DNA from: Lachnospiraceae bacterium
GTDB taxonomy: Bacteria; Bacillota; Clostridia; Lachnospirales; Lachnospiraceae
Assembly (NCBI GenBank): GCA_045586385.1
Contig: JAZNAE010000005.1
Location: 10,685 to 74,684, forward strand
Direction: 5' to 3'
DNA length: 64,000 nucleotides
Shown: piece by piece, positions 28,135 through 62,487 of the stretch
Numbering within the stretch: the stretch's first letter is position 1
How the letters are laid out: each line of letters opens with the position of its first letter
Notes under the pieces: model-generated
Told to the model about the DNA's origin: nothing
Seen by the model: only the letters and a program-made list of their open reading frames with translations
The model's database searches: none
Program-made: the position numbers and the translations under genes

Positions 28135-28617
28135 ATGTTGGCGATAGTAAAAGAAGTAGGTATTTTCGTTGTGATTGCACAGGCGATTCTTTATTTTGTG
28201 CCAAGTGAAAATTATGTGAAATATGTAAAGGTATTAATTGGTGTTATGATGGTTGCGAAACTGATTACGCCTATCTTTTCGTTGCTTTCGGGAGAAGTGT
28301 TTTCAGAACTGACTTATGAAGGAGAAGTATTTTTGGAAAGTATGGAAAAGGCAGAAATAAGTGCTGTAGGGGAGACGATGGAAGGAAAGATATATGAACA
28401 AATTCAAAGCGAAATGAAAGAAAAACTGGAAAAAGACCCCGTGGAAGGTTTTGTTATTAAGGATGTATACATAGAAGAAACAAAGGAAGGAATCGGGCAG
28501 GTGACCATTCTTGTCCAAAATGTGGGAAATGAAAAAAATGTTGCAAAGGAAGAACTGTTGAAGAGACATTATCAGGAACTTCTTCAGACAGATGCTATCA
28601 ATTTGCAAGTAAAATAG
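28135..28617 (+). CDS. spoIIIAF: Stage III sporulation protein AF
   Basis: Two N-terminal TM, P...Y.KYVK...G; operon position. Confidence 0.8.
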   Translation: MLAIVKEVGIFVVIAQAILYFVPSENYVKYVKVLIGVMMVAKLITPIFSLLSGEVFSELTYEGEVFLESMEKAEISAVGETMEGKIYEQIQSEMKEKLEKDPVEGFVIKDVYIEETKEGIGQVTILVQNVGNEKNVAKEELLKRHYQELLQTDAINLQVK

Positions 28618-28633
28618 AGGAAAGGGAAAAAGA

Positions 28634-29251: not shown

Positions 29252-29264
29252 AGGAGATGCAGAA

Positions 29265-30050
29265 TTGAGAAATATGATGAAAAAGAATCAGATTATGATT
29301 ACGGCTCTGGCTATTATGATTGCAGTGGCAGGATACCTGAATTTTGCCGGGGAACAAATTACGGATGAAGAAATTATGACGACAGCAGCAGAGAGTGCTG
29401 TCAGCAGTATGGAGGAAGAAGTATATGATGAAATATATGAAGATACGGATGTTGCCACTTTGTTTGAAATATCGGATGAAGATATGGAGCAGGCAGAAAA
29501 CGGAGACATTGCCAGTTTAGATACAGATATTATTACCGAGCAGGAAAACTATCTGGATGAATCCATGGAAGAGGTAATAGGTGAGACTACGGAAGAAATA
29601 GCCACAGAAACAATGAGCGAACAGACGCAGGCAGTGGTATCCGAACAACTTTCAGGTACGGAAACTCCCGGAGAGGCAGTATTTACTGCGACCGCTGATT
29701 TGGATGCATCATCCGGTGCAAAGCTTTTAAAAGAGCAGACAAGAGCTAAGAATAAAGAAACATTACTTGAAATTATCAATAATGTAAATATCAGTGAAGA
29801 CCAGAAGCAGGAAGCAATTGACAATATGATTTCCCTTACGGATATTGCAGAAAAAGAAACAGCTGCCGAAATTCTTTTGGAAGCGAAGGGGTTTGATGAT
29901 GTAGTGGTGAGTATTGCAGATGACGGTGTGGATGTAGTGGTGAATGCAGCTGAACTGACAGAAGCACAGCGTGCACAGATTGAAGATATCGTTGTCCGTA
30001 AAACCGGAATTGCAGCGGAAAATATTGTAATCAGCACTATTACAGAATAG
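29265..30050 (+). CDS. spoIIIAH: Stage III sporulation protein AH
   Basis: KKNQI.I..L..MI.VAGYLN, E.LLEAKGF.D.VV, I.DIV.R.TGI. Confidence 0.92.
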   Translation: MRNMMKKNQIMITALAIMIAVAGYLNFAGEQITDEEIMTTAAESAVSSMEEEVYDEIYEDTDVATLFEISDEDMEQAENGDIASLDTDIITEQENYLDESMEEVIGETTEEIATETMSEQTQAVVSEQLSGTETPGEAVFTATADLDASSGAKLLKEQTRAKNKETLLEIINNVNISEDQKQEAIDNMISLTDIAEKETAAEILLEAKGFDDVVVSIADDGVDVVVNAAELTEAQRAQIEDIVVRKTGIAAENIVISTITE

Positions 30051-41039: not shown

Positions 41040-41492
41040 ATGAAAAAGAGCAGACACCGTAAAATAAAAGAATTAGTAGAACAGTTCGAAATCGAAACCC
41101 AGGAAGAATTAGCCGATATGCTTCGTGAAAGCGGATATGCCGTGACCCAGGCAACGGTCTCCAGAGATATCCGGGAATTAAAACTTTCCAAAGTACCGAT
41201 GGGTGATGGTAGACAGAAATATACCATTCTGATTCACAGTGATCATTATCTAAGTGATAAATATATCCGTGTACTTCGCGACGGATTTGTTTCCATGGAT
41301 ATGGCACAGAATATTCTTGTGATTAAGACGGTTGCAGGAATGGCAATGGCAGTTGCTGCGGCTGTAGATGCCATGAAACTGAAAGAAATTGTAGGTTCTA
41401 TTGCAGGTGACGATACGATTATGGTGGCAGTCCGGACAGTGGAAGATACGAAATGTGTTATGGATACGATACGTGGTGTACTGGAGGAATAG
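41040..41492 (+). CDS. argR: Arginine repressor
   Basis: TQEEL, VTQATVSRDI.EL, G.IAGDDT. Confidence 0.96.
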   Translation: MKKSRHRKIKELVEQFEIETQEELADMLRESGYAVTQATVSRDIRELKLSKVPMGDGRQKYTILIHSDHYLSDKYIRVLRDGFVSMDMAQNILVIKTVAGMAMAVAAAVDAMKLKEIVGSIAGDDTIMVAVRTVEDTKCVMDTIRGVLEE

Positions 41493-41519
41493 CCGACATT
41501 ACACAGGAGGATACGAAAA

Positions 41520-43199
41520 ATGCTTGAGAGTTTACATGTAAAAAATCTGGCATTAATTGATGAGGCCGAGGTGGAATTTGCCGAAGGCCTTAATATACTT
41601 ACGGGAGAAACAGGTGCCGGTAAGTCCATTATTATCGGTTCTGTCAACTTAGCATTAGGCGCAAAGGCAGATAAAGATTACATCCGTGCCGGAGCAGAGT
41701 ATGCCTTGGTGGAACTTGTTTTTTCTTTAGATGAAAACCAAAGAAGCGTTGTTGAAGGTATGGAGCTTTCGGTTGAAGAAGACGGAACGCTGATTTTGCA
41801 AAGAAAAATAACAGCAGCCAGAAGTACTTGTAAAGTGAACGGAGAGACCGTAAGTAGTGGACAGTTAAAGGCCCTTGCGGCAGTGCTGCTTGATATGTAT
41901 GGACAACACGAGCATCAATCGCTTTTAAAGGCGTCTAAGCATAAGATGCTTTTGGATGATTATGCAGGAGAGGAAGTCTATATTTGGAAAAAAAACTTAA
42001 GAGAAATTTATTCCGGTTATAAAAAAGCTAAGGCGGAACTTTCTGATAATAGGATGAATGAAGAAGATAGGAAGCGTGAAGCTGATCTTCTTTCTTTTGA
42101 GGTGAATGAACTTGAAGCTGCAGCCATTGTGCAGGGAGAGGATGAACAACTTGAAAAGGCTTACCGGCGAATGACAAATGCCAAGAGAATTAAAGAAGCT
42201 GTTTATATAGCACACGGGTTGACCGGATATGAAAATAACGGTAGTGCCGGAGAAGTAATTGGACGTGCTATGCGTGAACTTCGCAGTGTGGCAGGATATG
42301 AAGAGGATGCCGGGCAGCTCTGTGAGCAGCTTGGCGAAATTGATAATTTGTTAAATGATTTTAACAGAGCACTCGCAGATTACAGAGAGAGTCTGGAGTT
42401 TGATGAAGAAGAATTTGTTCAGACAGAAGAGCGCTTAAATGTAATCAACCGTTTGAAAGATAAATACGGAAATTCTTACGAACAAATCGTGCAGGCACTT
42501 GCTGATAAATCCGCAAGATTAGAACAATTAGAAAATTACGAAGAATATTTGAGGCAATTAGAAGAAAAACTAAACAAAGAAAAAGAAAAAATTCTTGTTT
42601 TGTGTAAGAAGATTTCCGATGCAAGAGGGCAGGCGGCAACAAAGCTTACAAAGAAATTGACAGATGCATTAATTGATTTGAATTTCTTGGATGTTGATTT
42701 TGAAATTTTGGTAAAACCGGATGAGGAAAAGGTTTCAGAGGACGGATACGACGACATTGAGTTTTTAATTTCTACCAATCCCGGCGAAGCAAAGAAACCT
42801 CTGCAACAGGTGGCAAGTGGTGGTGAACTATCCAGAATCATGCTTGCATTTAAGAGTGTATTTGCCGATGAAGAAGGAACCAACACCTTGATTTTTGATG
42901 AAATCGATACAGGTATCAGCGGAAGAACTGCATGGAAGGTATCCGAAAAACTGGGACAGTTATCAGCCGGACATCAGATTATTTGTATCACGCATTTGCC
43001 GCAGATTGCAGCCATGGCGGACACACATTTTCTGATTGAAAAGCAAGTAATAAATGACAGAACCGTAACCGGAATACATAAATTATCGGAAGAGGAAAGC
43101 CTTACAGAGATGGCCAGACTTCTTGGCAGCGGCAATGTAACGGAAGCGGTACTTGGTAATGCCAGAGAAATGAAAGAAATGGCAAGAAATGTAAAGTAA
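41520..43199 (+). CDS. recN: DNA repair protein RecN
   Basis: TGETGAGKS, ASGGELSRIML, IFDEID.GISG, ITHLPQ.AA. Confidence 0.97.
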   Translation: MLESLHVKNLALIDEAEVEFAEGLNILTGETGAGKSIIIGSVNLALGAKADKDYIRAGAEYALVELVFSLDENQRSVVEGMELSVEEDGTLILQRKITAARSTCKVNGETVSSGQLKALAAVLLDMYGQHEHQSLLKASKHKMLLDDYAGEEVYIWKKNLREIYSGYKKAKAELSDNRMNEEDRKREADLLSFEVNELEAAAIVQGEDEQLEKAYRRMTNAKRIKEAVYIAHGLTGYENNGSAGEVIGRAMRELRSVAGYEEDAGQLCEQLGEIDNLLNDFNRALADYRESLEFDEEEFVQTEERLNVINRLKDKYGNSYEQIVQALADKSARLEQLENYEEYLRQLEEKLNKEKEKILVLCKKISDARGQAATKLTKKLTDALIDLNFLDVDFEILVKPDEEKVSEDGYDDIEFLISTNPGEAKKPLQQVASGGELSRIMLAFKSVFADEEGTNTLIFDEIDTGISGRTAWKVSEKLGQLSAGHQIICITHLPQIAAMADTHFLIEKQVINDRTVTGIHKLSEEESLTEMARLLGSGNVTEAVLGNAREMKEMARNVK

Positions 43200-43243
43200 A
43201 AAACAGAAAATGGTTTATTAAAAAAGAAGATTTTTCACATACT

Positions 43244-43272
43244 AAAAGAGACATGCAATATGTCTCTTTTTT
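43244..43272 (+). terminator. Terminator after recN, overlapping a possible sigmaG -10 (CATACTA 43238-43244) for spoIVB
   Basis: AAAAGAGACAT-gcaat-ATGTCTCTTTT + TT; the -35 for the forespore promoter has imperfect spacing, so the promoter call is weak. Confidence 0.65.
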
Positions 43273-43334
43273 CTTGCGGGAAACGAAGAGGGTATATTGG
43301 TTGTTTTCATAAGAAGAAAAAAGGGTGTGAAAAA

Positions 43335-44645
43335 TTGGAAAGAAATGAAATAACCTGTAACGGCAAACTGTTACTTTACAGAAAAATATTATATATTTCG
43401 CTTATTCTCAGTGTTTGTCTGACTTTTATTTCCGCCTACTATACATTGTGGAACCGTGTGCCGTCTACCATCATGGTGAGAGCAGGAATGCTTCAAACCC
43501 TTGATTTTAATTTGCCGGCATCGGGGGAGATGTATCGTGAGGAGGCGATAGAAGCCAGTGGTCAGGCACAAACATATGGTAGTCTGCAGGCAAGAAGTGT
43601 CCGTATTGATTTCAGTAATCCGGTTACAGTAAAGGCAAATCAAGTTGATAATTATAAGTTAAGTCTTAAATTATTCGGTATCATTCCACTAAAAGATGTA
43701 GATGTAAAAATTATACAGGATGTAAAGTTAAAACCCGCCGGAATCCCTATTGGGATATATGTGAAAACACACGGGGTTTTGATAGTCGGTGTCGGAGACT
43801 TTGAGGGTGAACAGGGACAAACCCATGAGCCGGCTAAATACGTTTTGCAAGCGGGTGACTACATTTTGGAAATGAACGAGGAAGAAGTTACCGGAAAAAA
43901 ACAGCTGATAGAAAAGATAAGTCACAGCGAGGGGCAGGAGATTGTATTTAAAATAAGGAGAGACGGAGAAGTATTCGAAGTAAGTGCAACGCCCCAGACA
44001 AACAGAAACGGGGAATATAAGATGGGCATCTGGGTAAGAGATAATGCGCAAGGTGTCGGAACCATGACTTACATTGATGAAAATTCCTGTTTTGGTGCTT
44101 TGGGGCACGGTATTAATGATGTGGATACCAGCACGTTAATGGAACTCTCCGACGGTACACTGTATCATACCGAGATTATCGGGATCACAAAAGGCCAAAA
44201 CGGTTCACCCGGAGAACTTACCGGATTTATTGAGTATGATGATAACAATATCATGGGAACTATCACAGCAAACACTGTAAAAGGAATTTTCGGAGTTTGT
44301 TCTGAAGATGTAACAAGTTCAAACGGCTATGATTACATGCCGATTGGATTAAAACAGGAAATAAAACAAGGACCGGCACAAATCATATCATCCTTAGGTG
44401 GTGCGGCAGAAACCTTTGACGTAGAAATCAAAGAAATCCGCTTAGAGAATGATGACATCAACAGGGGAATCGTACTGGAGATTACCGATCCAGATCTGCT
44501 TGCCTTGACAGGAGGAATTGTGCAGGGAATGAGCGGTAGCCCGATTATCCAAGATGGAAAGATTATCGGGGCTGTGACACATGTACTGGTGAATGACCCG
44601 ACCAGGGGATATGGGATCTTTATTGAAAATATGCTGGAGCATTGA
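43335..44645 (+). CDS. spoIVB: SpoIVB serine peptidase (PDZ + S55)
   Basis: G.WVRD...GVGT.T, GALGHGI.D, GG.VQGMSGSP, GAVTHV; TTG 43335 preferred because ATG 43260 lies inside the terminator hairpin. Confidence 0.93.
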   Translation: MERNEITCNGKLLLYRKILYISLILSVCLTFISAYYTLWNRVPSTIMVRAGMLQTLDFNLPASGEMYREEAIEASGQAQTYGSLQARSVRIDFSNPVTVKANQVDNYKLSLKLFGIIPLKDVDVKIIQDVKLKPAGIPIGIYVKTHGVLIVGVGDFEGEQGQTHEPAKYVLQAGDYILEMNEEEVTGKKQLIEKISHSEGQEIVFKIRRDGEVFEVSATPQTNRNGEYKMGIWVRDNAQGVGTMTYIDENSCFGALGHGINDVDTSTLMELSDGTLYHTEIIGITKGQNGSPGELTGFIEYDDNNIMGTITANTVKGIFGVCSEDVTSSNGYDYMPIGLKQEIKQGPAQIISSLGGAAETFDVEIKEIRLENDDINRGIVLEITDPDLLALTGGIVQGMSGSPIIQDGKIIGAVTHVLVNDPTRGYGIFIENMLEH

Positions 44646-44997: not shown

Positions 44998-45774
44998 CTA
45001 CATAAAGTGATACTCAATGTACTTTTCTACAATTTCGGGATTTAAAGGATGATTTTTAGTTTCATACGTGGTAATGAGCCGGATTCCGGGAGTAATGCCG
45101 TAAGTAGCATAAAGATTTAATTTGGAGGTTGTTTTTTCAATATAAGCAGAATTATCCATGAGTCCAAAATGTTCCCAATAATAGAAATCACCGGTGTGAG
45201 GATGACGGATAGTGAAGTCAGGATAGATGAGAGTATTACCTAATTGAAGGGCACACTCATAGCGAAATGGAATGTTATGAGAATGAAGAAGCATATCAAT
45301 TAACACCTCGGACTTGGAACGTAGATAAGTGTTTGAGACACCTTTATAAATCAGATTTTCCGGATGGTTTTGGTTTTTCTCATATGGAAAATTCATCCAA
45401 TCGGTCAATTCCTTTGATAAGGGGGTGAAATAGGGGGCAAGCAATTGCTGATATTCAGATGGTGCTATGAGAAGTTGTTCAGACTTGCCGGTAGGAGAGT
45501 GATGTCGTAAGTAATAAGAAAGTGCGTTCTTTTCGTGTTCTAAATCTTCAAGTAGTAGGGATAAATATTTCTTTTTGGCTAGTTGCTCTGCCAAAAGGCG
45601 ATTGGATTTTGGAATATAAATTTTGCGGTGACCATCGCTTAGATACCATTTGGATGTGTTATGATGATGACAACAAATTAGTTTGCCGGGAGGCAGTGAT
45701 TGTAGTTCATTTTGAATATGGCAGATGCGATTGCATATGGCATCATATTCAGATTTTATGCGCTCAGAAATCAT
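44998..45774 (-). CDS. Hypothetical protein with C-terminal Vsr/DUF559-like PD-(D/E)XK nuclease-like domain
   Basis: RSKSE helix, FRYE, YPDF, WEHFG motifs; RBS AGAAAGGAG on the - strand. Confidence 0.6.
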   Translation of the reverse strand: MISERIKSEYDAICNRICHIQNELQSLPPGKLICCHHHNTSKWYLSDGHRKIYIPKSNRLLAEQLAKKKYLSLLLEDLEHEKNALSYYLRHHSPTGKSEQLLIAPSEYQQLLAPYFTPLSKELTDWMNFPYEKNQNHPENLIYKGVSNTYLRSKSEVLIDMLLHSHNIPFRYECALQLGNTLIYPDFTIRHPHTGDFYYWEHFGLMDNSAYIEKTTSKLNLYATYGITPGIRLITTYETKNHPLNPEIVEKYIEYHFM

Positions 45775-45898
45775 TCATAAGCTCCTTTCTGTAAAGTATT
45801 AAAACTATTAAAACATAATGTGAGACAAGAAACAAGTGGTTATACATAAGAGCAGAGAATAAATAGAGTTTAAAAGAAGTCACAATTTGCGATTTCTT

Positions 45899-45934
45899 TG
45901 CATTTCATCCTTCAAAAATGCAACTCATCCGTCA
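45899..45934 (+). promoter_or_regulatory. Direct-repeat pair, candidate LytTR binding site
   Basis: TGCATTTCATCCTTCA (45899) and TGCAACTCATCCGTCA (45919), 13/16 identical, 20-bp period. Confidence 0.6.
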
Positions 45935-45997
45935 GAGTATTTTGCAGAAAGAAAAGATGTGATACGCTAAGCACATCAAGAGACGGAGGATGAAAAA

Positions 45998-47086
45998 ATG
46001 AATACAAAGATGAAAAAAAGACTTAAGGCAGCAGGTATCGTGATAGGTACAATTATAGTATTGGGTATGGTTTTATCCATAGCAATTCCCAAGATTATGT
46101 TTCCGGAATTTGAACCTTTAAAGGTGACCGGAAATCATGAAGTAGAAATTGCATTATATACATGGGAAGACGAAAGCAGAGTAGAAACTTTCAAAGATAC
46201 GGGAGAAAATCGTGCACTGACCGTAAAATTCTGGTATCCTAAGGAGGAAGGAAACTATCCCCTTGTGGTATTTTCCCATGGAGCATTCGGTGTGATAGAC
46301 AGTAACAACTCTACTTATACGGAACTGGCATCAAACGGTTATGTGGTAGCCAGTATTGCACACCCTTATCATGCCATGTTTGTGGAGGATGTAAACGGGA
46401 AAACCACTATGGTAGATATGGACTTTATGACCAAGGTATATGCGGATAATGGAGAAGACTACACAGAGGAAGCGGAGAGACGTGTATATGAATTCAGCGT
46501 GGAATGGATGGAAACCCGTTCTGCGGATATGAATTTTGTGGTAGATACCATTTTAGAAAAGGCTGCACAAAAAGAAGAAGGACCTTTTGCGTCAGTAAAT
46601 ACAGAAAAAATTGGTTTGATGGGACATTCCATGGGTGGTGCCACAGCAGTAGAACTTGGTAGAGAGCGTGCTGACATTGATGCAGTCATTGATTTGGAAG
46701 GTACCATGGCAGGAGAATACGTGGGATTTGAAAATGGCTATGAGATATATGAAAAAGAATCTTATCCCGTACCACTTTTAGATATCAATTCCCGGGCAGC
46801 TCGAGAAGACATTGATGCCCTTACAAAAGAACATGAAGGATGGGTGTATGTCAACGATTATGTTGGTCAAAATGCAGCAGATTACAGGGAAATAATATTT
46901 GAAGGTGCAGGGCATCTGAATTTTACGGATTTGCCTATGTTTTCTCCAATGCTGGCAAAGCTTTTGGGTGTGGGAGAAGTGGATGCAAGGGAATGTATGG
47001 AAAATGTAAATGACGTAGTCCTCACTTTTTTTGATTATTATTTAAAAGGGGAAGGCTCATTAAATGTACTGAAAGAAGTATATTAA
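45998..47086 (+). CDS. Membrane-anchored alpha/beta hydrolase (PAF-acetylhydrolase/dienelactone-hydrolase-like)
   Basis: N-terminal TM; PLVVFSHG, GHSMGG nucleophile elbow, DLEG, H.NF.D. Confidence 0.85.
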   Translation: MNTKMKKRLKAAGIVIGTIIVLGMVLSIAIPKIMFPEFEPLKVTGNHEVEIALYTWEDESRVETFKDTGENRALTVKFWYPKEEGNYPLVVFSHGAFGVIDSNNSTYTELASNGYVVASIAHPYHAMFVEDVNGKTTMVDMDFMTKVYADNGEDYTEEAERRVYEFSVEWMETRSADMNFVVDTILEKAAQKEEGPFASVNTEKIGLMGHSMGGATAVELGRERADIDAVIDLEGTMAGEYVGFENGYEIYEKESYPVPLLDINSRAAREDIDALTKEHEGWVYVNDYVGQNAADYREIIFEGAGHLNFTDLPMFSPMLAKLLGVGEVDARECMENVNDVVLTFFDYYLKGEGSLNVLKEVY

Positions 47087-47114
47087 ACAATCAGGATGAA
47101 GGGAGCATGATTAC

Positions 47115-47570
47115 ATGCGTGTAAACATCAGAAGAATTTTGAACCAAGAAGAGGAACAAGTAATTATTGAGTGTACACAAATTACTCCTGATATCAGGGA
47201 TATTGAGGCGTATGTGCTTGCAAAGGGAACAGAATTATCAGGAATTACCCAGGAGCAGCACAGAAAGCAATTTCATTTAAAAGACGTATATTATTTTGAA
47301 GCACTGGATGAAAAGGTCTTTGCTTATACCAAAGAGCAGGTTTATGAAATAAGAATGCGTCTTTATGAGGTGGAAAAAGCATACAGTAATTATCATTTTG
47401 TCAGATGCTCAAAATCAGTAGTACTGAACCTGATGCTTCTTGACAGCATCAGTCCTGCCATGAGCGGGCGCTTTTTTGCGCATATGAAAAATGGTGAAAA
47501 GTTAATGATTTCCAGGCAATATGCCAATCAGGTAAAGAGAATTGTTATGGGAGGTGGCAACGATGAATAG
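47115..47570 (+). CDS. Stand-alone LytTR DNA-binding protein
   Basis: V.YFEA.DEKVFAYT, RLYE.E, FVRCSKS..LN, ISR.Y; no receiver Asp motif. Confidence 0.88.
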   Translation: MRVNIRRILNQEEEQVIIECTQITPDIRDIEAYVLAKGTELSGITQEQHRKQFHLKDVYYFEALDEKVFAYTKEQVYEIRMRLYEVEKAYSNYHFVRCSKSVVLNLMLLDSISPAMSGRFFAHMKNGEKLMISRQYANQVKRIVMGGGNDE

Positions 47571-47997
47571 ACAGTCAAAATTATCGGAAATGATGATGGC
47601 TTTTTTTGTCAGTACAGCGTGTATTACTATATTAGAGGGGATAATGGGAATGCTGTTTTTTCCTGATGAAAAACTAACTTATCAAGCCTTTTTTGCTCCG
47701 CCTATCATGGGCCTGTGCTCGGTTCTGTTTGGGTTTGTGACTTGGTCAAAAAGGGAACTGACAATTAAGGAAACTCTGCTTCGAAGGGGGATTCACCTCT
47801 TGTTAATTGAGCTGTTTGTATTTGGACTAAACTATGCTGAAGGGATTGTTTTCCCCCTTGGAATAGTAATTTCTTTGATATTTGGAATCGCGGCAGTATT
47901 TGTGGCGGTATATGTGGTTTTGTGGATTAATGACATAAGGAGTGCTAACCAATTTAATAAAAAATTGAAAGAATATCAAAATAATGTTATATATTAA
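47563..47997 (+). CDS. DUF3021-like membrane protein (LytTR partner)
   Basis: 4 TM segments ending A...N..L..Y; overlaps the LytTR gene; start at ATG 47563. Confidence 0.7.
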   Translation: MNRQSKLSEMMMAFFVSTACITILEGIMGMLFFPDEKLTYQAFFAPPIMGLCSVLFGFVTWSKRELTIKETLLRRGIHLLLIELFVFGLNYAEGIVFPLGIVISLIFGIAAVFVAVYVVLWINDIRSANQFNKKLKEYQNNVIY

Positions 47998-48000
47998 TCT

Positions 48001-48033
48001 ATGCGGCTTGCTGTTTTTTTGGCAAGCCGTTTG
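48001..48033 (+). terminator. Terminator of the hydrolase-LytTR operon
   Basis: GCGGCTTGC...GCAAGCCGT + TT. Confidence 0.6.
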
Positions 48034-48058
48034 TATTTTATAAGGATTATGTTATAAT
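48031..48058 (+). promoter_or_regulatory. sigmaA promoter of MATE
   Basis: TTGTAT-16-TATAAT with extended TG. Confidence 0.6.
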
Positions 48059-48119
48059 GGGTAAGTCTGTAAATAATTAGCAAAGTTTTTAGACAGAAAG
48101 GAATGACATAATCGGTATT

Positions 48120-49499
48120 ATGGTAAATGTAAAGAAATTATTCGAACCTACAGATATGACAGTAGGAACACCATGGAAAAGTATTGCAATATTCTCAATT
48201 CCCATGTTAATCGGAAATATTGCACAGCAATTATACAGTACGGTAGACAGCATTGTAGTAGGACATTATGTGGGAGATAATGCACTGGCGGCAGTTGGAA
48301 GTGCAGCACCGCTTTTTAATATGCTTTTGGTATTATTTGTAGGAATATCCGCAGGTGTGGGAATTATGGTTTCCCAGTATTTCGGCGCAAAAGCACGTGA
48401 AGAATTGTCGGGAACGATTGGTACTTGTATCACTTTAACCGCAATTGTATCGGTATTTTTAATGATAGCGGCACCGCCCTTTGTGCGTGATTTACTGCAG
48501 ATGTTAAATACACCGGAAAGCATATTAGATGACTGTACATCTTATTTGGTCATTATGCTCTACGGCGGTGCAGGAATGGCTTATTACAATATCCTAAGCG
48601 GTATCCTTAGGGGAATGGGAGACTCTTTTTCCGCACTGATATACTTGTTGATTGCAACGGTACTAAATATTTTTTTAGATATTCTTTTTGTGGCACAGTT
48701 TGATATGGGAGTAGCAGGCGTAGCCCTGGCTACAGTCATTGCACAGGCTATTTCATCCGTACTTTGTTTGTGGAAGCTGATGCACATGAGGGAAGTGTTT
48801 GACTTAGGCCTTAAGCAACTTAAGATGGCCAAAGAGCATGTAATACAGATGGTAAGATTGGGACTTCCGTCAGGTCTTACCCAGGCAATTTTTTCATCTG
48901 CGATGATTATCGTACAGTCATTAACAAACAGCTTCGGGGAAATGTTTATTGCAGCAAACGTCATTGTTATGCGTGTGGACGGTTTTGCCATGATGCCGAA
49001 CTTCTCTTTCGGTACAGCCACAACCACTTTTGCAGGACAAAATGTGGGGGCAAAAAAATATGACCGTGTTATGCAGGGAGCAAAGCAGGGAACTATTCTT
49101 GCTGTGGCATGTTCCGCAATTATTACCGGGGTAATTTTACTGTTTGGCAAGAGTTTGATGGGCATTTTTACCAATACACAGGAATTGGTAGAACTCAGTT
49201 ATTATATGATGTGTATTTTGGCAGTGGGCTATATAGCCATGGCAGTTACCCAGAGTTTATCAGGCGTAATGCGTGGCGCAGGCGATACGGTAACGCCCAT
49301 GTGGATTTCTCTCTGCACAACAGTAATTATCCGTGTGCCGATTGCTTACGGAATATCCTATCTTACAAGAACACCCGAGCTTCCATTTGGACGTAGCGAA
49401 TGTATCCAGATATCACTTCTTGCAGCATGGATTATGGGCGCGGTTCTCACCACCCTTTTCTACAAGGCGGGAAGATGGAAAAAGAAAGCAATTTTATAG
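48120..49499 (+). CDS. MATE family efflux transporter
   Basis: PMLIGNIAQQLY..VD..VVG, SQYFGA, RG.GDS, GQN.GA. Confidence 0.93.
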   Translation: MVNVKKLFEPTDMTVGTPWKSIAIFSIPMLIGNIAQQLYSTVDSIVVGHYVGDNALAAVGSAAPLFNMLLVLFVGISAGVGIMVSQYFGAKAREELSGTIGTCITLTAIVSVFLMIAAPPFVRDLLQMLNTPESILDDCTSYLVIMLYGGAGMAYYNILSGILRGMGDSFSALIYLLIATVLNIFLDILFVAQFDMGVAGVALATVIAQAISSVLCLWKLMHMREVFDLGLKQLKMAKEHVIQMVRLGLPSGLTQAIFSSAMIIVQSLTNSFGEMFIAANVIVMRVDGFAMMPNFSFGTATTTFAGQNVGAKKYDRVMQGAKQGTILAVACSAIITGVILLFGKSLMGIFTNTQELVELSYYMMCILAVGYIAMAVTQSLSGVMRGAGDTVTPMWISLCTTVIIRVPIAYGISYLTRTPELPFGRSECIQISLLAAWIMGAVLTTLFYKAGRWKKKAIL

Positions 49500-49520
49500 A
49501 ATTGCCATAGCGTGTTTTGT

Positions 49521-49550
49521 TTGACATGCTATAGAAGTTAAGGATATAAT
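49521..49550 (+). promoter_or_regulatory. sigmaA promoter of glnA
   Basis: TTGACA-18-TATAAT. Confidence 0.7.
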
Positions 49551-49588
49551 TATACTGTTAAGAAAAAACCTATTGGGAGGTTACATAA

Positions 49589-51013
49589 GTGAAAACTACA
49601 GTACAAGACATCATGGAACTCATCCGTGAAAAAGACATTAAAATGGTTGATTTTAAAATGGTTGACATTAACGGACAGTTCCGCCATGTTACCATTCCGG
49701 CAAAGAATTTTTCGGAAGAAACAATGAAAAGCGGCATTGGTTTTGATGCATCAAACTATGGATATGCAGTTGTAGAAAAGAGCGATATGGTATTTATCCC
49801 TGATCCGGATACTGCCTGTATCGATCCTTTCTGTGAAATCCCCACATTATCCATGACAGGTAATGCGATGATTATCGATAATCCCGAAAATCGTCCGCTT
49901 TCACAGTATCCCAGAAATATCGTTCTGGCTGCTGAGCAGTACATGAAAGATAGTGGTATTGCAGACACCATGCTGATTCTTCCTGAATTTGAATTTTATT
50001 TATTTGACCAGGTAGGCTGGCAGGTAGCACCCAATTCCATCGGAATGTCTCTTGATGTAAATCAGGCATACTGGAACGGTGATGTAGACGGCAAGGGATG
50101 TGTAGTTCCCAAGCAGAAAGCTTACCATGTAGCTAAACCTTACGATGCAAGTTATGAGTGTAGAAGTGAAATGTGTATGCTTATGGAAGAAATGGGTATT
50201 CCGATTAAGTATCATCATCCCGAAGTAGGTGCGGCAGGTCAGTTTGAAATCGAGCCTCAGCTCGGACAGATGTCTAAGATGGCAGATGCTTCCATGATGA
50301 TTAAATACATCATTCACAACACAGCAATGAAATATGGTAAGACAGCAACCTTTATGCCTAAGCCTGTATACGGTGAAGCAGGTAACGGTATGCATGTACA
50401 TATGTTACTTCTTAAGGATGACCAGCCGGTATTCTCAGATGATAACGGTTACTCCAACTTGAGCAAGGAAGCACATTGGTTCATGGGCGGCTTGTTAAAA
50501 CATATTGCATCCTTATGTGCAATCACAAACCCCAGTACTAACTCTTTTAAACGTCTGGTTCCCGGATTTGAAGCACCGGTTACCGTAGGATATGCGACAT
50601 CCAACCGTAGTGCGGTTATCCGTATTCCTGCATACGCGAAGTCTCCCAAGATGAGACGTTTTGAACTTCGTAATCCTGATGCAACCTGTAATCCTTACTT
50701 CTGCTATGCAGCAATCTTAATGGCAGGTCTTGACGGTATCAAGAACAAAATCGATCCTCATGAAAACGGATGGGGACCTTACGATATGAACTTATATAAT
50801 TTATCAGATGAAGAAAAAGCGAAACTGAAAGGACTTCCCACCTCATTAGAACAGGCACTGGATGCACTTGAAGCAGATCATGATTACCTGACAGCAGGCG
50901 GTGTATTCCCTGAAGCCCTCTTAAAGAACTTTATTGCATCTAAGAGAGCAGAGTGCAGTCAGATGGCAGCAATTCCTCATCCTGCTGAATTTGAGAAGTA
51001 TTATAATTTATAA
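49589..51013 (+). CDS. glnA: Type I glutamine synthetase
   Basis: FDAS, PEFEF, FMPKP...AGNGMHVH, NS.KRLVPG.EAP, NRS..IR.P, E.R.PD...NPY; GTG start. Confidence 0.95.
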   Translation: MKTTVQDIMELIREKDIKMVDFKMVDINGQFRHVTIPAKNFSEETMKSGIGFDASNYGYAVVEKSDMVFIPDPDTACIDPFCEIPTLSMTGNAMIIDNPENRPLSQYPRNIVLAAEQYMKDSGIADTMLILPEFEFYLFDQVGWQVAPNSIGMSLDVNQAYWNGDVDGKGCVVPKQKAYHVAKPYDASYECRSEMCMLMEEMGIPIKYHHPEVGAAGQFEIEPQLGQMSKMADASMMIKYIIHNTAMKYGKTATFMPKPVYGEAGNGMHVHMLLLKDDQPVFSDDNGYSNLSKEAHWFMGGLLKHIASLCAITNPSTNSFKRLVPGFEAPVTVGYATSNRSAVIRIPAYAKSPKMRRFELRNPDATCNPYFCYAAILMAGLDGIKNKIDPHENGWGPYDMNLYNLSDEEKAKLKGLPTSLEQALDALEADHDYLTAGGVFPEALLKNFIASKRAECSQMAAIPHPAEFEKYYNL

Positions 51014-51029
51014 AAACAGCAATTAGTCG

Positions 51030-51060
51030 AGCCCCTGTCAAAAAACGACAGGGGCTTATA
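51030..51060 (+). terminator. glnA terminator
   Basis: AGCCCCTGTC-aaaaaac-GACAGGGGCT. Confidence 0.75.
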
Positions 51061-51083
51061 TAACATTAATAAGGAGTTTGTTT

Positions 51084-52127
51084 ATGAAATATCCCGCATT
51101 TTTAAAAGAAAACGGAACAATCGGATTTGTTGCCCCTGCTTTTGGGTGTAATATAGAGCCATATAAATCAGCATTTCAAAATGCACAGAAAAAATTGAAA
51201 CAAATGGGTTATCAGATGGATGTAGGCCCTAACTGTTATGAAGGACGTGGAATCGGCATCAGCAATACACCAAAAACTTGCGGAGAAGAGCTGACCGATT
51301 ATTATTTCAGTGAGAATAATGATGTTCTGATATCCTGCGGCGGCGGAGAGTTAATGTGTGAAACCATAAGCCGGGTGGATTTTGATGCATTAAAGAGTGC
51401 AGAGCCGAAATGGTATACCGGATATTCCGATAACACAAACATGACCTTCTTATTGGCGACAATTTGCGATACCGCATCTCTATACGGACCTTGCGCCGCA
51501 GCGTACGGAATGGAGCCGTGGCATCCGTCTATCAGTGATATGTTTGACTTTTTGAAAGGACAAAAGCTTACTTTTGAAAGTTATGATTTGTGGGAAAAGG
51601 AAGGGCTAAAAGATGCAGAACATCCGTTGCTGCCATATCATTGTACAGAAAAATCGGAAGTGAAAATCTTTATGCCGAAAGATGATACTATGGAAGAAGT
51701 AAGCTGCGGTAAGATGCAGGGGCGACTCTTAGGCGGTTGTATGGATTGTCTTGTGAATCTGACAGGTACGAAATTCGACAAAGTAAAAGAATTCACAGAG
51801 AAATATAAGGAAGACGGTATACTTTGGTTTTTAGAGGCTTGTGACTTAAATGTATTCAGTATACGAAGGGCGATGTGGCAGATGAAGGAAGCCGGTTGGT
51901 TTCAGCATGTAAGAGGATTTGTTATCGGAAGACCCTTAAATGGTGAGGAAATGATGGGACTTGATCAGTATGAAGCCGTGCTTGGTATTGCAAAGGAATA
52001 CAGGGTTCCAGTGTTCATGGACGCAGATTTGGGACACCTGCCTCCTGCCATGCCGTTTGTGACGGGAAGTGTTGCAAAGATAGAAGGAAAAGACGGAAAA
52101 ATGAGAATTTCATACGAATTAAAATAG
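51084..52127 (+). CDS. S66 LD-carboxypeptidase/MccF-like peptidase
   Basis: GYSD Ser, FLE Glu, GH.PP His; ATG 51084 after AAGGAG. Confidence 0.88.
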   Translation: MKYPAFLKENGTIGFVAPAFGCNIEPYKSAFQNAQKKLKQMGYQMDVGPNCYEGRGIGISNTPKTCGEELTDYYFSENNDVLISCGGGELMCETISRVDFDALKSAEPKWYTGYSDNTNMTFLLATICDTASLYGPCAAAYGMEPWHPSISDMFDFLKGQKLTFESYDLWEKEGLKDAEHPLLPYHCTEKSEVKIFMPKDDTMEEVSCGKMQGRLLGGCMDCLVNLTGTKFDKVKEFTEKYKEDGILWFLEACDLNVFSIRRAMWQMKEAGWFQHVRGFVIGRPLNGEEMMGLDQYEAVLGIAKEYRVPVFMDADLGHLPPAMPFVTGSVAKIEGKDGKMRISYELK

Positions 52128-52157
52128 AAGCTGCCCGACAAGCGCGATAAATGACAG

Positions 52158-52186
52158 TTGAATGGGCAAATCATGTTCCTTATAAT
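52158..52186 (+). promoter_or_regulatory. sigmaA promoter of the Spo0A_C gene
   Basis: TTGAAT-17-TATAAT. Confidence 0.7.
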
Positions 52187-52227
52187 AGTTTCGTAGCAGT
52201 ATTTGTGAAAATATGGAGGAACTTTTG

Positions 52228-52749
52228 ATGGAACAGCTAAATTTGACGACAATGAAGGATACGGAAAAGGTGCAGATGCTATTTGAAAGCCTTTTACAGA
52301 TGAACAGAGAATTCCAGATTATGATTACGGTACCTTCGGAGATAAGAAGCGCAGAAAAAGAAGGAAAAGAAATAAAAGCGGCAGAAACGCCTCTTACCTT
52401 TGACCTAGAAAAAGACGTAACGGATATGATACATGAGATAGGCGTGCCTGCACATATAAAAGGATATCAGTATTTACGAGAGGCAATTATGATGTCAGTG
52501 AAGGAAGCAGATATGCTTGGGTCTATTACCAAGGTGCTTTATCCAACCATTGCGGAAAAATATCAGACCACATCAAGCCGTGTGGAGAGAGCTATCCGTC
52601 ATGCCATTGAGGTCGCATGGAACAGAGGACGCATGGAAACTTTGGATAATTTGTTCGGATATACCATAAACACAGGAAAAGGCAAACCCACCAATTCCGA
52701 ATTTATTGCACTGATTGCAGATAAAATCAGATTGCAGTACAGAAAATAG
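52228..52749 (+). CDS. Spo0A C-terminal effector-domain protein lacking a receiver domain
   Basis: [19 protein letters not shown]...[17 protein letters not shown]...KPTNSEFIA; about 55-aa non-receiver N-terminus; ATG 52228 after GGAGG. Confidence 0.9.
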
Positions 52750-52774
52750 AGAAAAGAATGAATGACGGAAACTT

Positions 52775-52820
52775 AAATTTCGGCAGGCAGAAATATCTGT
52801 TTGCCGAAATTTTCTCTTTA
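52775..52820 (+). terminator. Terminator after the Spo0A_C gene
   Basis: AAATTTCGGCAGGCAGA-aata-TCTGTTTGCCGAAATTT (two G-U) then T-rich run. Confidence 0.75.
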
Positions 52821-52880
52821 ATTGCTAGATTGCTTGTTGTATAATAGTTCTATAACTATTAATGTTTTGGAGGATTTGTG

Positions 52881-54326
52881 ATGAAGAAGATTCTTTTTGT
52901 CGCATCGGAAGGGGTTCCGTTTATCAAAACAGGAGGATTGGCAGACGTAGTCGGTTCGCTTCCGAAGTGCATTGATAAGAATTATTTTGATGTCAGGGTA
53001 GTCCTTCCCAAGTATTCCTGCATGAAACAGGAAATGAAGGATAAACTTAGTTACGTGACTCATTTTTATATGGATTTTCATTGGAAAAATGAGTACGTAG
53101 GCGTAATGTACGCAGAGGTAGATGGGGTAAAATACTATTTTATTGATAATGAGATGTTCTTTACGGGATTCAAGCCTTACAGTGATAATGCTTTGTTTGA
53201 AATCGAAAAATATGCATTCTTTTCCAAAGCAGCATTATCAATTTTGCCGGTAATTGATTTCAGACCGGATGTGATTCATTGTCATGATTGGCAGACAGGA
53301 CTTATTCCTGTTTATTTAAAAGAGAGATTCCAGGGAAATGAATTTTATCGCGGCATTAAGTCCGTTATGACGATTCACAACCTGAAGTTTCAGGGTAAAT
53401 GGAGTGTGAAAGAAGTTCAGGATATCACAGGATTGCCTGATTACTACTTCACACCGGACAAGTTAGAATCCTTTAAGGATGCGAATTTACTGAAGGGTGG
53501 TCTTGTTTATGCAGACGCTATCACGACTGTTAGTGATACCTACGCAGAAGAAATTAAGACAGCTTTTTACGGAGAGAATTTGGACGGACTTCTTCGTGCC
53601 AGAAGCCATGATCTTAGAGGTATCGTAAACGGTATTGATACAGATGACTTCAATCCGGAAACAGATCCTTATATTGAACATAATTATAATGCGATGAATT
53701 TCCGGAAGGAAAAGATTAAAAATAAACGTGCCCTGCAGGCTGAACTTGGTCTTGAACAGGATGATAAGAAGTTTATGATCGGTATTGTTTCCAGACTGAC
53801 AGACCAGAAGGGATTCGATTTGATTGCTTATATTATGGACGAACTTTGTCAGAGCAATGTGCAGATTGTGGTACTTGGTACAGGTGAAGAACAGTATGAA
53901 AATATGTTCCGTCACTTTGACTGGAAGTACAATAACAAGGTTTCTGCAAATATATTCTATTCAGAGGCTTTGTCCCATAAGATTTATGCAGCATGTGATG
54001 CATTTTTGATGCCTTCACTGTTTGAGCCCTGTGGACTTAGTCAGCTGATGAGTCTTCGTTACGGAACAGTGCCCATTGTAAGAGAAACAGGCGGATTAAA
54101 AGATACCGTACAGCCGTATAATGAGTATGAGAGCAGCGGAACAGGATTTTCCTTTACCAATTACAATGCACATGAAATGCTCGGCACGATTTATTATGCT
54201 GAGAAGATATATTACGAAAAGAAAAGAGAATGGAATAAAATTATTGACCGCGCCATGGCGGCAGACTTTTCATGGAATGCATCAGCGAAGAAATATCAGG
54301 AGATGTATGACTGGCTGATCGGCTAA
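52881..54326 (+). CDS. glgA: Glycogen synthase
   Basis: KTGGLADV, HCHDWQT, TIHN, GI.NGID, PS.FEPCGL.Q, GGLKDTV; ATG 52881 after GGAGG. Confidence 0.96.
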   Translation: MKKILFVASEGVPFIKTGGLADVVGSLPKCIDKNYFDVRVVLPKYSCMKQEMKDKLSYVTHFYMDFHWKNEYVGVMYAEVDGVKYYFIDNEMFFTGFKPYSDNALFEIEKYAFFSKAALSILPVIDFRPDVIHCHDWQTGLIPVYLKERFQGNEFYRGIKSVMTIHNLKFQGKWSVKEVQDITGLPDYYFTPDKLESFKDANLLKGGLVYADAITTVSDTYAEEIKTAFYGENLDGLLRARSHDLRGIVNGIDTDDFNPETDPYIEHNYNAMNFRKEKIKNKRALQAELGLEQDDKKFMIGIVSRLTDQKGFDLIAYIMDELCQSNVQIVVLGTGEEQYENMFRHFDWKYNNKVSANIFYSEALSHKIYAACDAFLMPSLFEPCGLSQLMSLRYGTVPIVRETGGLKDTVQPYNEYESSGTGFSFTNYNAHEMLGTIYYAEKIYYEKKREWNKIIDRAMAADFSWNASAKKYQEMYDWLIG

Positions 54327-58374: not shown

Positions 58375-61300
58375 ATGAATGTTTGGCTGCAAATAGGATT
58401 AGGATTATTACCGGGAGCGTTGGTTGCGATGATTATTTTGATAAAGCGACGGGCGTTTTGTTTTGGTACGCTTTTTTCAACCTTCCTGCTTTTGGCGGGC
58501 TGTGGCATATCCCTATTTTTTGGCGGCACTGCTCTTTTGAAGGATGGCACTATGGAAGTACAGATGTCTGAAAAGAAAATGATGGCATTTGCCAATGCAC
58601 TTGCAGAAGAAGGCGCCTATGACGCAGCTATTGAGGTTTTAGAACAATATAGCAGTGAATACGGATATAATGATGAATGCAGACTGTTAACGGCACGTAT
58701 TGCAGTTATGGAAGGAGATTTCGAAAGTGCCCACGGTCTGTATCATTATTTGTGTGAGAATACAGATTTAATTTCTGCAGATACGGAGGAAGTTGTATTT
58801 GTAGATATGAAATTGGAAAACAGTACGGCAGACCTTGTTATGATAGAATATCTGAAGTCTGTGGGAGAAAATATTGAAGACTATGGTTACACAGAAAGTA
58901 TATACGAGGATATCAAAAAGAGTGAACAGAAAACAATTGATGATATTAAAAGAGATATCAAAAATGCGATAGAAGACAGTTATAGTATTTCTGATGAGTG
59001 CTCGGACTGTGCAGAAGCAGTAGCAGGCATTTTAGAAGTATATGAGGATGTGTCAGAAAATAATTACGCAACTCCAGAGGAAAGTGAAGAAAAAGAAAAG
59101 AACTTGCGCAGATATGGCAGAACTTTTGAAGATATAGAAAGCAATGCACCGGAATATATGGCGATGGAATGTGTGGAAAAAGCACGTATCAAGTCCTATG
59201 TGATAAGCGGTGATTTTGAGCAGATAGCAGAAAAATTGGAAGAAAAAGCTTCTTATCATGAACTGATGGTAGTAGCTGAGTTATATATGAGCGGTTTGGT
59301 CAAAGAATCTGATTTTTCAGATGACTATCAAAAGATTGACAACGAAAATGCTGATTTGATAGAGGATAAGTTGTCTGCAATTTATAAAGAAAATTCAGAT
59401 GATTTGAATAAACAGGAAAAGAAAGCATTTAAAGAACGTATTGAGGCAATTAACGTACAGTTAAAAGATCCGGTTCTTGCATCCGTAAAGGAAGAACTGA
59501 CAGATGTAGCCAACGAGGAAGCAGGAACAGATGCAACGAAAGTATACCTGGAACTTGCAAAAATAGAAAATTATTTCGGTAATGAAACATCTACCGATTC
59601 CTATTTAAGTACAGCTATCTACAGTTCTCCGGAATGTGAAGATGACAGTTATGTTTCCGCAATGTCACAGATTATTACGGTCATCAGTAATGATGAAGAA
59701 AATGATAAAGAAAACATTAAAAATGTTGCTACCTATGTGGAAAACGTGTTAGACCATTCTCTGACAGTGAATGTAGAAAGTATTGTTTCGCCTCAAAATC
59801 AGATTGCAGTGGAAGAGGAGGATGAATCTGTTGACTTTACAAGAACTACCGTTGATTATGTGAGCCGGGTTAAAAGTGCCATTTCTATCGGTAAAATAGA
59901 TGCTTCCGGTTTTGAAAAAATTGTGTCTACAGTACAGATAGACAGTGATTATCTGACAGATGTGGATGAACTGAAGGCAGCACTGAAAGTATACGATTGT
60001 GGTGCGGAAATTTCAGATTTTACACTTAAGAAAATAAATTATGAAGGCTCCAACATCATGCTTGTCTGTGATGTGTCCGGCAGTATGAGCGGAAACATCC
60101 AGGATTTAAGGGATGCGGTAGTTACCTTTATTACGGATAAAAATGCAAATGAAGATATTGCGGTAGTGACTTTTGATGATACCATTGTTGACACAAAGTT
60201 TTTCGGAACGCCGGATGATGAACTGATTGCATTTGCCCAAAACATGCAAATAGCCGGCGGTACAGACATTTTCTCAGCGGTTACAAACTGTTTAGATGGT
60301 TTCTCGGCAGAGCCGGAGGATAATAATGTCCTTATCTTAATGACAGATGGACAGGATAATTATGCCAGAGATGCAGAAACAATCTATGCGGAAATAGGCA
60401 CGCGTGCATTACAAAAGGGAATCACTGTCTATACCATGGGACTTGGCACAAGTGTGGATACAAACTATTTAAGCATCATCGCCGGAAGCGGCAATGGAGA
60501 GTTTCTTTATGTATCAGACAGTTCCAGTTTATCGTCATTCTATGATTTGCTGCATGCACAGGTATATAATCAATATGAAATTACCTATCAGGCACAGGAT
60601 ACAATCACTATGTCAGGACGTACTTTGGAAGTCGTATTGCCGGATGAAAATCTCCGTGATGTGAAGACTTACTCATTGAAAGATGCCGCTGATGTGCAGG
60701 GAGGACTTCCAATCAGCAATGGCATAACAATACAGGGAATGAATCCCAAATACATATATAAAGGAAAGCAGGATACTTCTGTTAAATTAAAAGGAACAGG
60801 ATTTAAAGAAGACAGTAAGATGTCTGTTAAACTTAACGGAAATATTGACTATTCCGTTACCGCTACTTATGTGGATGCAGAGACCTATACAATTACCATT
60901 CCTGCAAGTGTAGCAGTGGGTAAATATAATGTGGAAATTACCATTGACGGTCATAAAAAAGTACTTCAAAACGGATTTTCCGTCATTGCCAAATGCGGAG
61001 AGAAGAAGACTGCATTTGGCCCCTATGTCTTTACGTCAGCTGAGAAAATAGAAAATGGTATTGATAACTGTACGCTACGTGGAAATGTTACCATGAACGG
61101 CTGGTTACATTTTAAAGGTGATGTGACAATTGTAGGAAATTTGGAAAATGGAGATTCTGTCAGGGTGACAGATGACAGTGGCTCGTATGTTGAATTTGAT
61201 ACTGTTACAGCATCCGGATTTGGACAATATCTGGCGCAAAAAGGTGTTTCGCTGGATATACCTGCACTATATAATTTCACATTGTATAATGACCAGCAAA

Positions 61301-62487
61301 ACTTATATGATTATGAAAATTATATGGTAGATGATATTTCAACGGGCACTTTAGAAATTTACAATTTGCTTAAACTTAACAGTCTTGTAGTGCGTTTGTA
61401 TCCAAACAGTATCGGCATCCATTATTATAATGGGTTGCCCAACCTACCTTTCCAGGATAAAATCCTAATTTTAAAATCACAGGAATTGTTTGAAATTTCT
61501 TGTGACGGAAGCGCACAGATTACCAATGAAAATGTTGGTATTGTTTTAAACGCAGAGTATGAAGGTAATGATGATAAAGGATTTAATACACCTGTAAAAC
61601 TTCTAAATGCACCGGTTCAGTTTAATGGCGATGTTAAGGTTGACATTAATACTATCAGTAATGAATATGCCGTTGGTGCTATGATTAAATTCATGATTTT
61701 AGATAAAAGTTCGCCGGGACTTGGAGCAGAAGTTAAATGGAAAGGAAATCTGGTTCCCGATTCCGTAAAACTAAGTTTGGAATTAGGCAAAGCGCTGAAA
61801 CTGCCTACAGCGGTTCCGCTTGAAATGAATGATTTTAGCTTTGAGGTGTCAGACATAAATTCGGCAGTGGAGAATGGAACATGGACAAGCCTTAAATTTA
61901 CAGGGGCATTTTCCTTGACAAGTTTGAATCTTAAGACGTATATGCCTAAACTGGAGAAATACATAGATGATGTTAGCATTTTATCCATGCCGGAAACCAC
62001 AGCATCTATACAAATTTCGCCTTTCCAGATTGAAACATCTGCAAAGCTAATGTTTTTGGATACAATTCAACTTGCCCAGTCAGAAGTGCAGATAGGTAAC
62101 TTTGACTATACCAATCCGCTTCTTCAGTTTGATAATGAAGCTGTGAAAGGTGTCAAGGCAGCACTGAAAACAGGTATCATGTGGGAAAGCAAAAAAGGAC
62201 AAATATCTTTAGATTTGTCCGGTAAGGGAGAACTTGATGCTCACTCAAGATTCGTAGGAGCAATATATGAAGGAACTGCGGAATATGATATTAAGTTATG
62301 GTTATTTAATTCGGAAGACAAGTATTTCGGTACATATGCGCTTGGTTTTTATATAACACATGAAGGTGAAAAACAGTTTGTTTTTGCTTATAAGTATCTG
62401 AACAAAGACGGGGAATATGAAGGTGATTTCCACAGTATTGGTGCAGACAGCATATGGGAAAAGAATAAGAGCGGTGTATTAACTTAA
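58375..62487 (+). CDS. 1370-aa membrane-anchored protein: TPR-like helical region, vWA (MIDAS), IPT/TIG Ig-like domain, beta-rich C-terminal region
   Basis: Two N-terminal TMs around KRR; DVSGS (60070-60084), GGT, ILMTDG; IQGMNP..GTGF..V..GKYNVEI IPT pattern. Confidence 0.8.
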   Translation: MNVWLQIGLGLLPGALVAMIILIKRRAFCFGTLFSTFLLLAGCGISLFFGGTALLKDGTMEVQMSEKKMMAFANALAEEGAYDAAIEVLEQYSSEYGYNDECRLLTARIAVMEGDFESAHGLYHYLCENTDLISADTEEVVFVDMKLENSTADLVMIEYLKSVGENIEDYGYTESIYEDIKKSEQKTIDDIKRDIKNAIEDSYSISDECSDCAEAVAGILEVYEDVSENNYATPEESEEKEKNLRRYGRTFEDIESNAPEYMAMECVEKARIKSYVISGDFEQIAEKLEEKASYHELMVVAELYMSGLVKESDFSDDYQKIDNENADLIEDKLSAIYKENSDDLNKQEKKAFKERIEAINVQLKDPVLASVKEELTDVANEEAGTDATKVYLELAKIENYFGNETSTDSYLSTAIYSSPECEDDSYVSAMSQIITVISNDEENDKENIKNVATYVENVLDHSLTVNVESIVSPQNQIAVEEEDESVDFTRTTVDYVSRVKSAISIGKIDASGFEKIVSTVQIDSDYLTDVDELKAALKVYDCGAEISDFTLKKINYEGSNIMLVCDVSGSMSGNIQDLRDAVVTFITDKNANEDIAVVTFDDTIVDTKFFGTPDDELIAFAQNMQIAGGTDIFSAVTNCLDGFSAEPEDNNVLILMTDGQDNYARDAETIYAEIGTRALQKGITVYTMGLGTSVDTNYLSIIAGSGNGEFLYVSDSSSLSSFYDLLHAQVYNQYEITYQAQDTITMSGRTLEVVLPDENLRDVKTYSLKDAADVQGGLPISNGITIQGMNPKYIYKGKQDTSVKLKGTGFKEDSKMSVKLNGNIDYSVTATYVDAETYTITIPASVAVGKYNVEITIDGHKKVLQNGFSVIAKCGEKKTAFGPYVFTSAEKIENGIDNCTLRGNVTMNGWLHFKGDVTIVGNLENGDSVRVTDDSGSYVEFDTVTASGFGQYLAQKGVSLDIPALYNFTLYNDQQNLYDYENYMVDDISTGTLEIYNLLKLNSLVVRLYPNSIGIHYYNGLPNLPFQDKILILKSQELFEISCDGSAQITNENVGIVLNAEYEGNDDKGFNTPVKLLNAPVQFNGDVKVDINTISNEYAVGAMIKFMILDKSSPGLGAEVKWKGNLVPDSVKLSLELGKALKLPTAVPLEMNDFSFEVSDINSAVENGTWTSLKFTGAFSLTSLNLKTYMPKLEKYIDDVSILSMPETTASIQISPFQIETSAKLMFLDTIQLAQSEVQIGNFDYTNPLLQFDNEAVKGVKAALKTGIMWESKKGQISLDLSGKGELDAHSRFVGAIYEGTAEYDIKLWLFNSEDKYFGTYALGFYITHEGEKQFVFAYKYLNKDGEYEGDFHSIGADSIWEKNKSGVLT

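Follow-up and report, generated by a model that had tools for sequence, protein, structure and literature searches.

In the window, by which we mean the whole 64,000-nucleotide stretch of Lachnospiraceae DNA analysed here, the gene at the canonical spo0A position encodes a Spo0A that keeps its complete DNA-binding effector domain and that, judging from alignment, has lost most of its receiver by an internal in-frame deletion. We believe, with a probability of roughly 0.6, that this short form acts independently of phosphorylation, that it descends from a deletion in the ancestor of one Lachnospiraceae clade and is a natural counterpart of the sad67 form of Bacillus subtilis Spo0A, and that its activity is set by the amount of protein or by the binding of a partner to what is left of the receiver. 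Entry into endospore formation is held to pass universally through phosphorylation of the Spo0A receiver, and the trigger of sporulation in gut commensal Clostridia is an open question. The gene and its parts are as follows.

52228..52749, + strand: coding sequence of the receiver-deleted Spo0A (173 amino acids plus the stop codon)
52228..52338, + strand: receiver remnant, amino acids 1-37, beta1-alpha1-beta2, collinear with the receiver HMM from residue 1
52339..52401, + strand: variable, probably disordered linker, amino acids 38-58
52402..52746, + strand: Spo0A effector domain, for DNA binding and trans-activation, amino acids 59-173

The original prediction had described a 173-residue ORF with a complete Spo0A effector domain, and on this point our searches agree with it. 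Pfam Spo0A_C (PF08769) matches 52417..52728 over all 104 model positions with an E value of 8.7e-47, and the effector domains of known structure (PDB 1fc3/1lq1) match over 114 residues with an E value of 1e-49, the recognition helix and the KPTNSEFIA motif being intact. The ORF at 52213..52749 encodes 178 amino acids when read from its first ATG; alignment with 57 relatives places the conserved start at the second ATG, 52228, which gives the 173-residue protein. Since the effector consensus of the short forms differs from that of the full-length forms at a single group-specific position, the surfaces for DNA binding and activation look unchanged, and AlphaFold2 modelled the domain confidently. 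The Spo0A equivalog model TIGR02875 is passed marginally (204 bits against a cut-off of 200), by an alignment confined to positions 127-259 of the 262 in the model. What precedes the effector domain is not a two-component receiver fold with its acidic pocket, Thr/Ser and Lys, beta3 to alpha5 being missing. The phospho-acceptor, which is Asp56 in B. subtilis, is absent, and no short form matches the receiver HMM past position 52.

The N-terminus had been taken to be novel as well as free of a phospho-acceptor Asp; the second part holds, but the first does not, as residues 1 to about 35 are the start of a Spo0A receiver. We built a receiver HMM from 22 full-length Lachnospiraceae Spo0A proteins plus that of B. 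subtilis and searched it with the first 45 residues of each short form. All 58 short forms were matched, 56 of them with position 1 aligned to position 1, over a span from position 1 to about 40 and with scores of 6.8-24.4 bits (best E value 6e-8), whereas the highest score among 1160 shuffled controls was 5.9 bits. We therefore reject a novel N-terminal domain, although Pfam returned nothing significant for this region. Because the N-terminus of the window's own protein is the lowest scorer among the short forms, at 6.8 bits, homology of the remnant rests on the family and not on the window sequence alone. The short forms have in common the N-terminus MEqLNvtatkDnEqvyriLddLi, followed by a linker of variable length, and the counterpart in full-length Lachnospiraceae Spo0A, M.k.nVAiaDDNekil.ll.di...D.e.eVvG, covers the same beta1-alpha1-beta2 segment. 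The canonical acidic pair DD is K-D in the window, and 124 of 137 sequences have K, R or Q at position 10 and D at position 11; FQIMITVPS is nearly invariant within the remnant. It is this collinearity with beta1-alpha1-beta2, together with the HMM scores set against the shuffles, that identifies the protein as a Spo0A with an internal receiver deletion. By alignment, about 90 residues have been lost in frame (about receiver residues 38-126, alpha2 to alpha5), a span that includes the phospho-acceptor Asp of beta3 and the switch Thr/Ser and Lys; the edge of the deletion can be placed only to within a few residues, as ITVPS is aligned to beta4 by MAFFT and to beta2 by the HMM.

In the AlphaFold2 monomer the remnant is a single helix (residues 12-24, pLDDT 54-69) with no strands, and residues 37-56 of the linker have a pLDDT below 50. 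The model suggests that the remnant probably does not fold alone and that its folding may depend on a partner or on another subunit; with a strandless monomer of low to moderate confidence, any role for it is a guess. Among 1.84 billion representative proteins there are many with Spo0A_C only, and about six representatives match the short form from residue 1. The same search returned proteins of 394-454 amino acids, P0121-P0124 among them, with three or four tandem Spo0A_C-like stretches, and two very long proteins of 1003 and 1077 amino acids, P0142 having three stretches, the best near residues 278-399, and P0151 a single C-terminal one. For this DNA-binding domain, such architectures are unusual.

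Selection has acted very differently on the three parts of the protein, as measured by Nei-Gojobori dN/dS on unsaturated pairs. The effector domain gives 0.02, with a median identity of 91%, and the receiver remnant 0.19, whereas the linker evolves neutrally (0.94), has a median pairwise identity of 0.11 and differs in length between species. As the original prediction had held, this is an intact gene under selection and not a decayed fragment. Synonymous sites are near saturation in most pairs (pS about 0.8), and the deletion must therefore be old.

We counted as a short form any effector-bearing stop-to-stop frame that is too short to hold a receiver or in which the match to the receiver model ends at position 52 or earlier. 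Two scans of species-representative genomes gave at least 57 and at least 80 such loci, which make up the 137 loci from assemblies other than that of the window; together they comprise at least 124 distinct coding sequences from one clade of species-level genomes. Isolates among them are the Eisenbergiella tayi type strain DSM 26961, E. porci WCA-389-WT-23B and Lachnospiraceae bacterium 28-4, and the gene is also present in Lachnospiraceae bacterium CE91-St56 (complete genome AP025576.1), in IMSAGC_002 and IMSAGC_011, and in MAGs labelled Acetatifactor and Kineothrix. The best 120 hits of a protein database search are all 163-198 amino acids long and contain Spo0A_C alone; several of these short forms carry the NCBI name 'sporulation transcription factor Spo0A'. 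In a neighbour-joining tree of the adjacent GlgA, 52 short-form loci make up a single clade that includes no full-length locus, and this monophyly, together with a junction motif common to all short-form loci, points to a single ancient deletion. Five loci with a short spo0A-glgA of Lachnospiraceae type (L031, L137, L147, L149 and L153) lie in bins labelled Odoribacter splanchnicus, Bacteroides fragilis, Bacillus sp., Ruminococcus sp. and Bacteroides sp., which are probably mis-binned or mislabelled MAGs.

A misassembly that had removed a receiver was the obvious way in which the finding could have failed. Independent gut metagenome contigs span both the start of the gene and the deletion junction (X1 record 2, 52213-52423; X1 record 3, 52366-52860; X2 record 10, 52086-52283; X4 record 26, 52145-52297), and given these and the same architecture in the 137 other loci, we reject misassembly. 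The sequencing runs that carry the E. tayi locus look like mixed communities. In the E. tayi short spo0A (L085, gene at 3001-3525), the contigs from X38 and X39 lack a base at position 3336, a variant that would shift the frame of the effector domain and that may reflect true inactivation of the gene or an assembly error at low depth.

The chromosomal surroundings show which gene this is. Its conserved neighbours in the window are the following.

41040..44645, + strand: argR-recN-spoIVB (NCBIfam ArgR; RecN 506 bits; SpoIVB 373 bits against a cut-off of 305)
52878..54326, + strand: glgA (GlgA 647 bits), a gene whose place downstream of spo0A is conserved in Lachnospiraceae

Full-length spo0A is immediately followed by glgA in all 22 complete loci recovered, as is the short form, and argR-recN-spoIVB lies upstream of both forms wherever the flank is long enough, directly so in many short-form loci. 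The window follows the standard clostridial gene order, from spoIIIAA..AG (24874-29251) and an ORF at 29265-30050 through xseA, ispA, dxs, tlyA and nadK to argR (41040), recN (41520) and spoIVB (43260-44645), and then, after an insert, the short spo0A, glgA and a SpoVB/MurJ-like flippase. The insert between spoIVB and the short spo0A, two genes that adjoin in many relatives, is of about 7.5 kb (44998-52127) and holds two unknown ORFs, a hydrolase-like ORF, a MATE transporter, glnA and an S66 LD-carboxypeptidase-like gene; an upstream S66 gene is confined to the relatives closest to the window (L001-L004, L006, L008, L010, L028 and L035). Further along, at 58375-62487, a 1370-residue ORF that weakly matches a sortase-target protein and choice-of-anchor repeats probably encodes a large cell-surface protein. 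On gene order, the short gene is the positional orthologue of spo0A and, as it occupies the canonical position between spoIVB and glgA throughout the clade, it is not an extra copy; most likely, it is the sole Spo0A of clade members. The suggestion that the protein is an activator or competitor of Spo0A implied a second, canonical Spo0A, and so does not sit well with a short gene that is itself at the canonical locus.

The gene has expression signals of its own, as had been predicted.

52134..52157, + strand: conserved element directly 5' of the -35 hexamer, CCCGACAAG plus CGCGATAAATGACAG
52158..52186, + strand: sigma-70/sigmaA-type promoter-like site, TTGAAT-17-TATAAT (a consensus match only, 10/12)
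52215..52219, + strand: ribosome-binding site GGAGG, 8 nt before the ATG at 52228
52775..52812, + strand: intrinsic terminator-like hairpin, a stem of 17 pairs followed by a T-rich tail

The positions of the -35 and -10 hexamers are conserved among the nearest relatives, and nearly every short-form locus has GGAGG ahead of the conserved ATG. The upstream element is common to short-form loci (L001-L010 and L035) and to full-length ones (L057-L061): the layout GCGAT..ATGACAG-TTGAA is found again in the closest short-form loci, and CCGACAAG..TTGACAG stands 5' of full-length spo0A in L057-L061. Within it, CCGACA resembles a reversed 0A box (TTCGACA), and we regard the element as a candidate autoregulatory site through which autoregulation is possible. 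Exact TGNCGAA boxes are absent from the 220 nt upstream of the gene in the window, and in relatives only scattered ones occur. A gut metatranscriptome contig of 518 nt from a related strain is collinear with 52252-52769 at 92% identity and ends at 52769, with the upstream gene and the spacer before glgA uncovered; as a single low-depth contig in which carry-over of DNA is possible, it is weakly suggestive of a monocistronic transcript in a close relative.

On the strength of these observations, we propose a model for how the short form works. In the ancestor of one Lachnospiraceae clade, spo0A underwent an in-frame deletion in its receiver. Phosphorylation at the canonical site is impossible in the product, and most of the domain that holds the effector inactive is gone; action independent of phosphorylation, as had been predicted, would be the natural consequence of the missing phospho-acceptor. 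Freed of both phospho-acceptor and inhibitory receiver, the short Spo0A would bind 0A boxes with no kinase or phosphorelay and would activate or repress the Spo0A regulon, as sad67 does. The decision to sporulate would then be set mainly by the amount of protein made from the gene's own promoter with its conserved upstream element, and the remnant may add control as a module for dimerisation or partner binding. More tentatively, and as a possibility that we would not yet call probable, the whole clade (Eisenbergiella, Acetatifactor-like bacteria and many uncultured genera) may sporulate with no histidine kinase, phosphorelay or phosphatase acting on Spo0A, its master regulator being permanently 'on', control being moved to synthesis or stability, and the remnant having become a new dimerisation or partner module.

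Could the short protein instead be an accessory paralogue that competes at 0A boxes with a full-length Spo0A encoded elsewhere, or supplements it there? Effector-only Spo0A homologues do occur as extra genes in phages (PMC10294663; L081), but the short gene lies at the spoIVB-spo0A-glgA site, with no full-length gene there in clade loci among the matches listed, its C-terminal domain is as conserved as that of the full-length proteins, and the C-domain-only matches listed from the first scan include none from an assembly that carries the short form. Among the 1868 Lachnospiraceae genomes of one survey, some from the gut had nearly all sporulation genes but, going by Prokka names, had 'lost spo0A' (PMC11170972), which fits the lack of a full-length copy although it is not tied to this clade; the short form could be missed by gene name, and part of the reported loss may be an effect of annotation. 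Taken together, we hold a paralogue to be improbable. An assembly artefact, a recent pseudogene fragment or a phage-derived gene would account for the short length and for nothing else, and the chance of any of the three is close to nil given the shared architecture in other assemblies, isolates included, the independent contigs across the junction, the strong purifying selection, and the housekeeping neighbours of a gene with two distant viral relatives only.

More serious is the suggestion that this clade no longer sporulates, or has only a vestige of sporulation, and that the short form survives as a global regulator, independent of phosphorylation, of some other process such as stationary-phase metabolism. 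The E. tayi type strain (PMC5741734) and E. massiliensis (PMC4917486) have been described as non-spore-forming, an Acetatifactor MAG was classed as non-sporulating by one tool (PMC12536801), and non-spore-formers often keep spo0A, which is full-length in many non-sporulating Lachnospiraceae (bioRxiv 10.1101/2022.02.25.481979). On the other hand, an E. tayi isolate was recovered from chemically and heat-treated faeces in a screen for endospore-formers (PMC10655253), and the genes tell against loss. The gene for the sporulation-specific protease SpoIVB has a near-full-length match in 56 clade loci and is intact in all 56, with a dN/dS of 0.14 despite saturated synonymous sites; the few stops within these matches fall 5' of real start codons. 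An intact spoIVB under selection speaks for a sporulation programme that was retained after the deletion. The spoIIIA operon is also present in the window (24874-30050), SpoIIIAA alone passing its NCBIfam cut-off and AB, AE, AF and AG scoring below theirs, and the 261-residue ORF in the position of AH (29265-30050) had no family match. Since spoIVB and spoIIIA have been retained, we believe that the regulon of the phosphorylation-independent Spo0A probably still includes sporulation, and we consider loss unlikely, though less so than a paralogue.

If the clade keeps its sporulation genes under selection, it would offer a natural experiment on whether the level of Spo0A, or a partner protein, is enough by itself to gate sporulation. 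There is also a practical consequence, as 'sporulation signatures' and annotation pipelines that require a full-length spo0A may misclassify these abundant gut bacteria. Cultured members exist in E. tayi DSM 26961, E. porci and strain 28-4.

A literature search that left most subscription journals outside found no published example of a chromosomal, orthologous and clade-fixed receiver-deleted Spo0A, and comparison with known systems sets the short form apart from each of them. Canonical Spo0A (TIGR02875 / COG5801; 1FC3, 1LQ1) occupies the same chromosomal position after spoIVB, and the effector of the short form shares about 75% of its residues with the Bacillus domains, and the recognition helix in full; the difference is the roughly 90 receiver residues and the phospho-acceptor Asp that the short form has lost. 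Response regulators with Asp-less or pseudo-receivers likewise work without phosphorylation, but they keep the complete fold with the Asp substituted, whereas in the short form most of the fold is gone (PMC4395418; PMC12632262).

Gut phages and viromes carry effector-only spo0A homologues, described by Schwartz et al. 2023 (PMC10294663) in a paper that also cites Grimsley 1994 and Ireton 1993 for DNA binding and activation of transcription by the isolated effector domain of B. subtilis Spo0A. Like the short form, these homologues have Spo0A_C without a working receiver, and the action proposed for them is likewise independent of a signal. In contrast, they are mobile accessory genes, and the short form is chromosomal, orthologous to spo0A and provided with a receiver remnant. 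A viral collection held only two distant relatives of the short form. The homologue in L081 (6478-6936) is an effector-only protein of 152 amino acids with 53% identity and an unrelated N-terminus (MKNWYIEINGVKHY...), lies among phage-like small ORFs, and is probably the kind of phage spo0A reported from gut viromes. With housekeeping genes as neighbours, only distant viral hits and an unrelated N-terminus in L081, we reject a phage origin for the short form.

The sad67 form of B. subtilis Spo0A, a constitutively active laboratory allele, is, going by Ireton et al. of 1993, reportedly a small deletion. It is internal to the receiver, makes the protein active without phosphorylation, and drives early sporulation genes and, given a second signal, sporulation itself (PMC4689505). 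The likeness lies in an internal in-frame receiver deletion that frees the effector from control by phosphorylation, an activity that in the short form is predicted only. However, sad67 was engineered or selected in one strain, whereas the short form carries a much larger deletion that has become fixed naturally throughout a clade.
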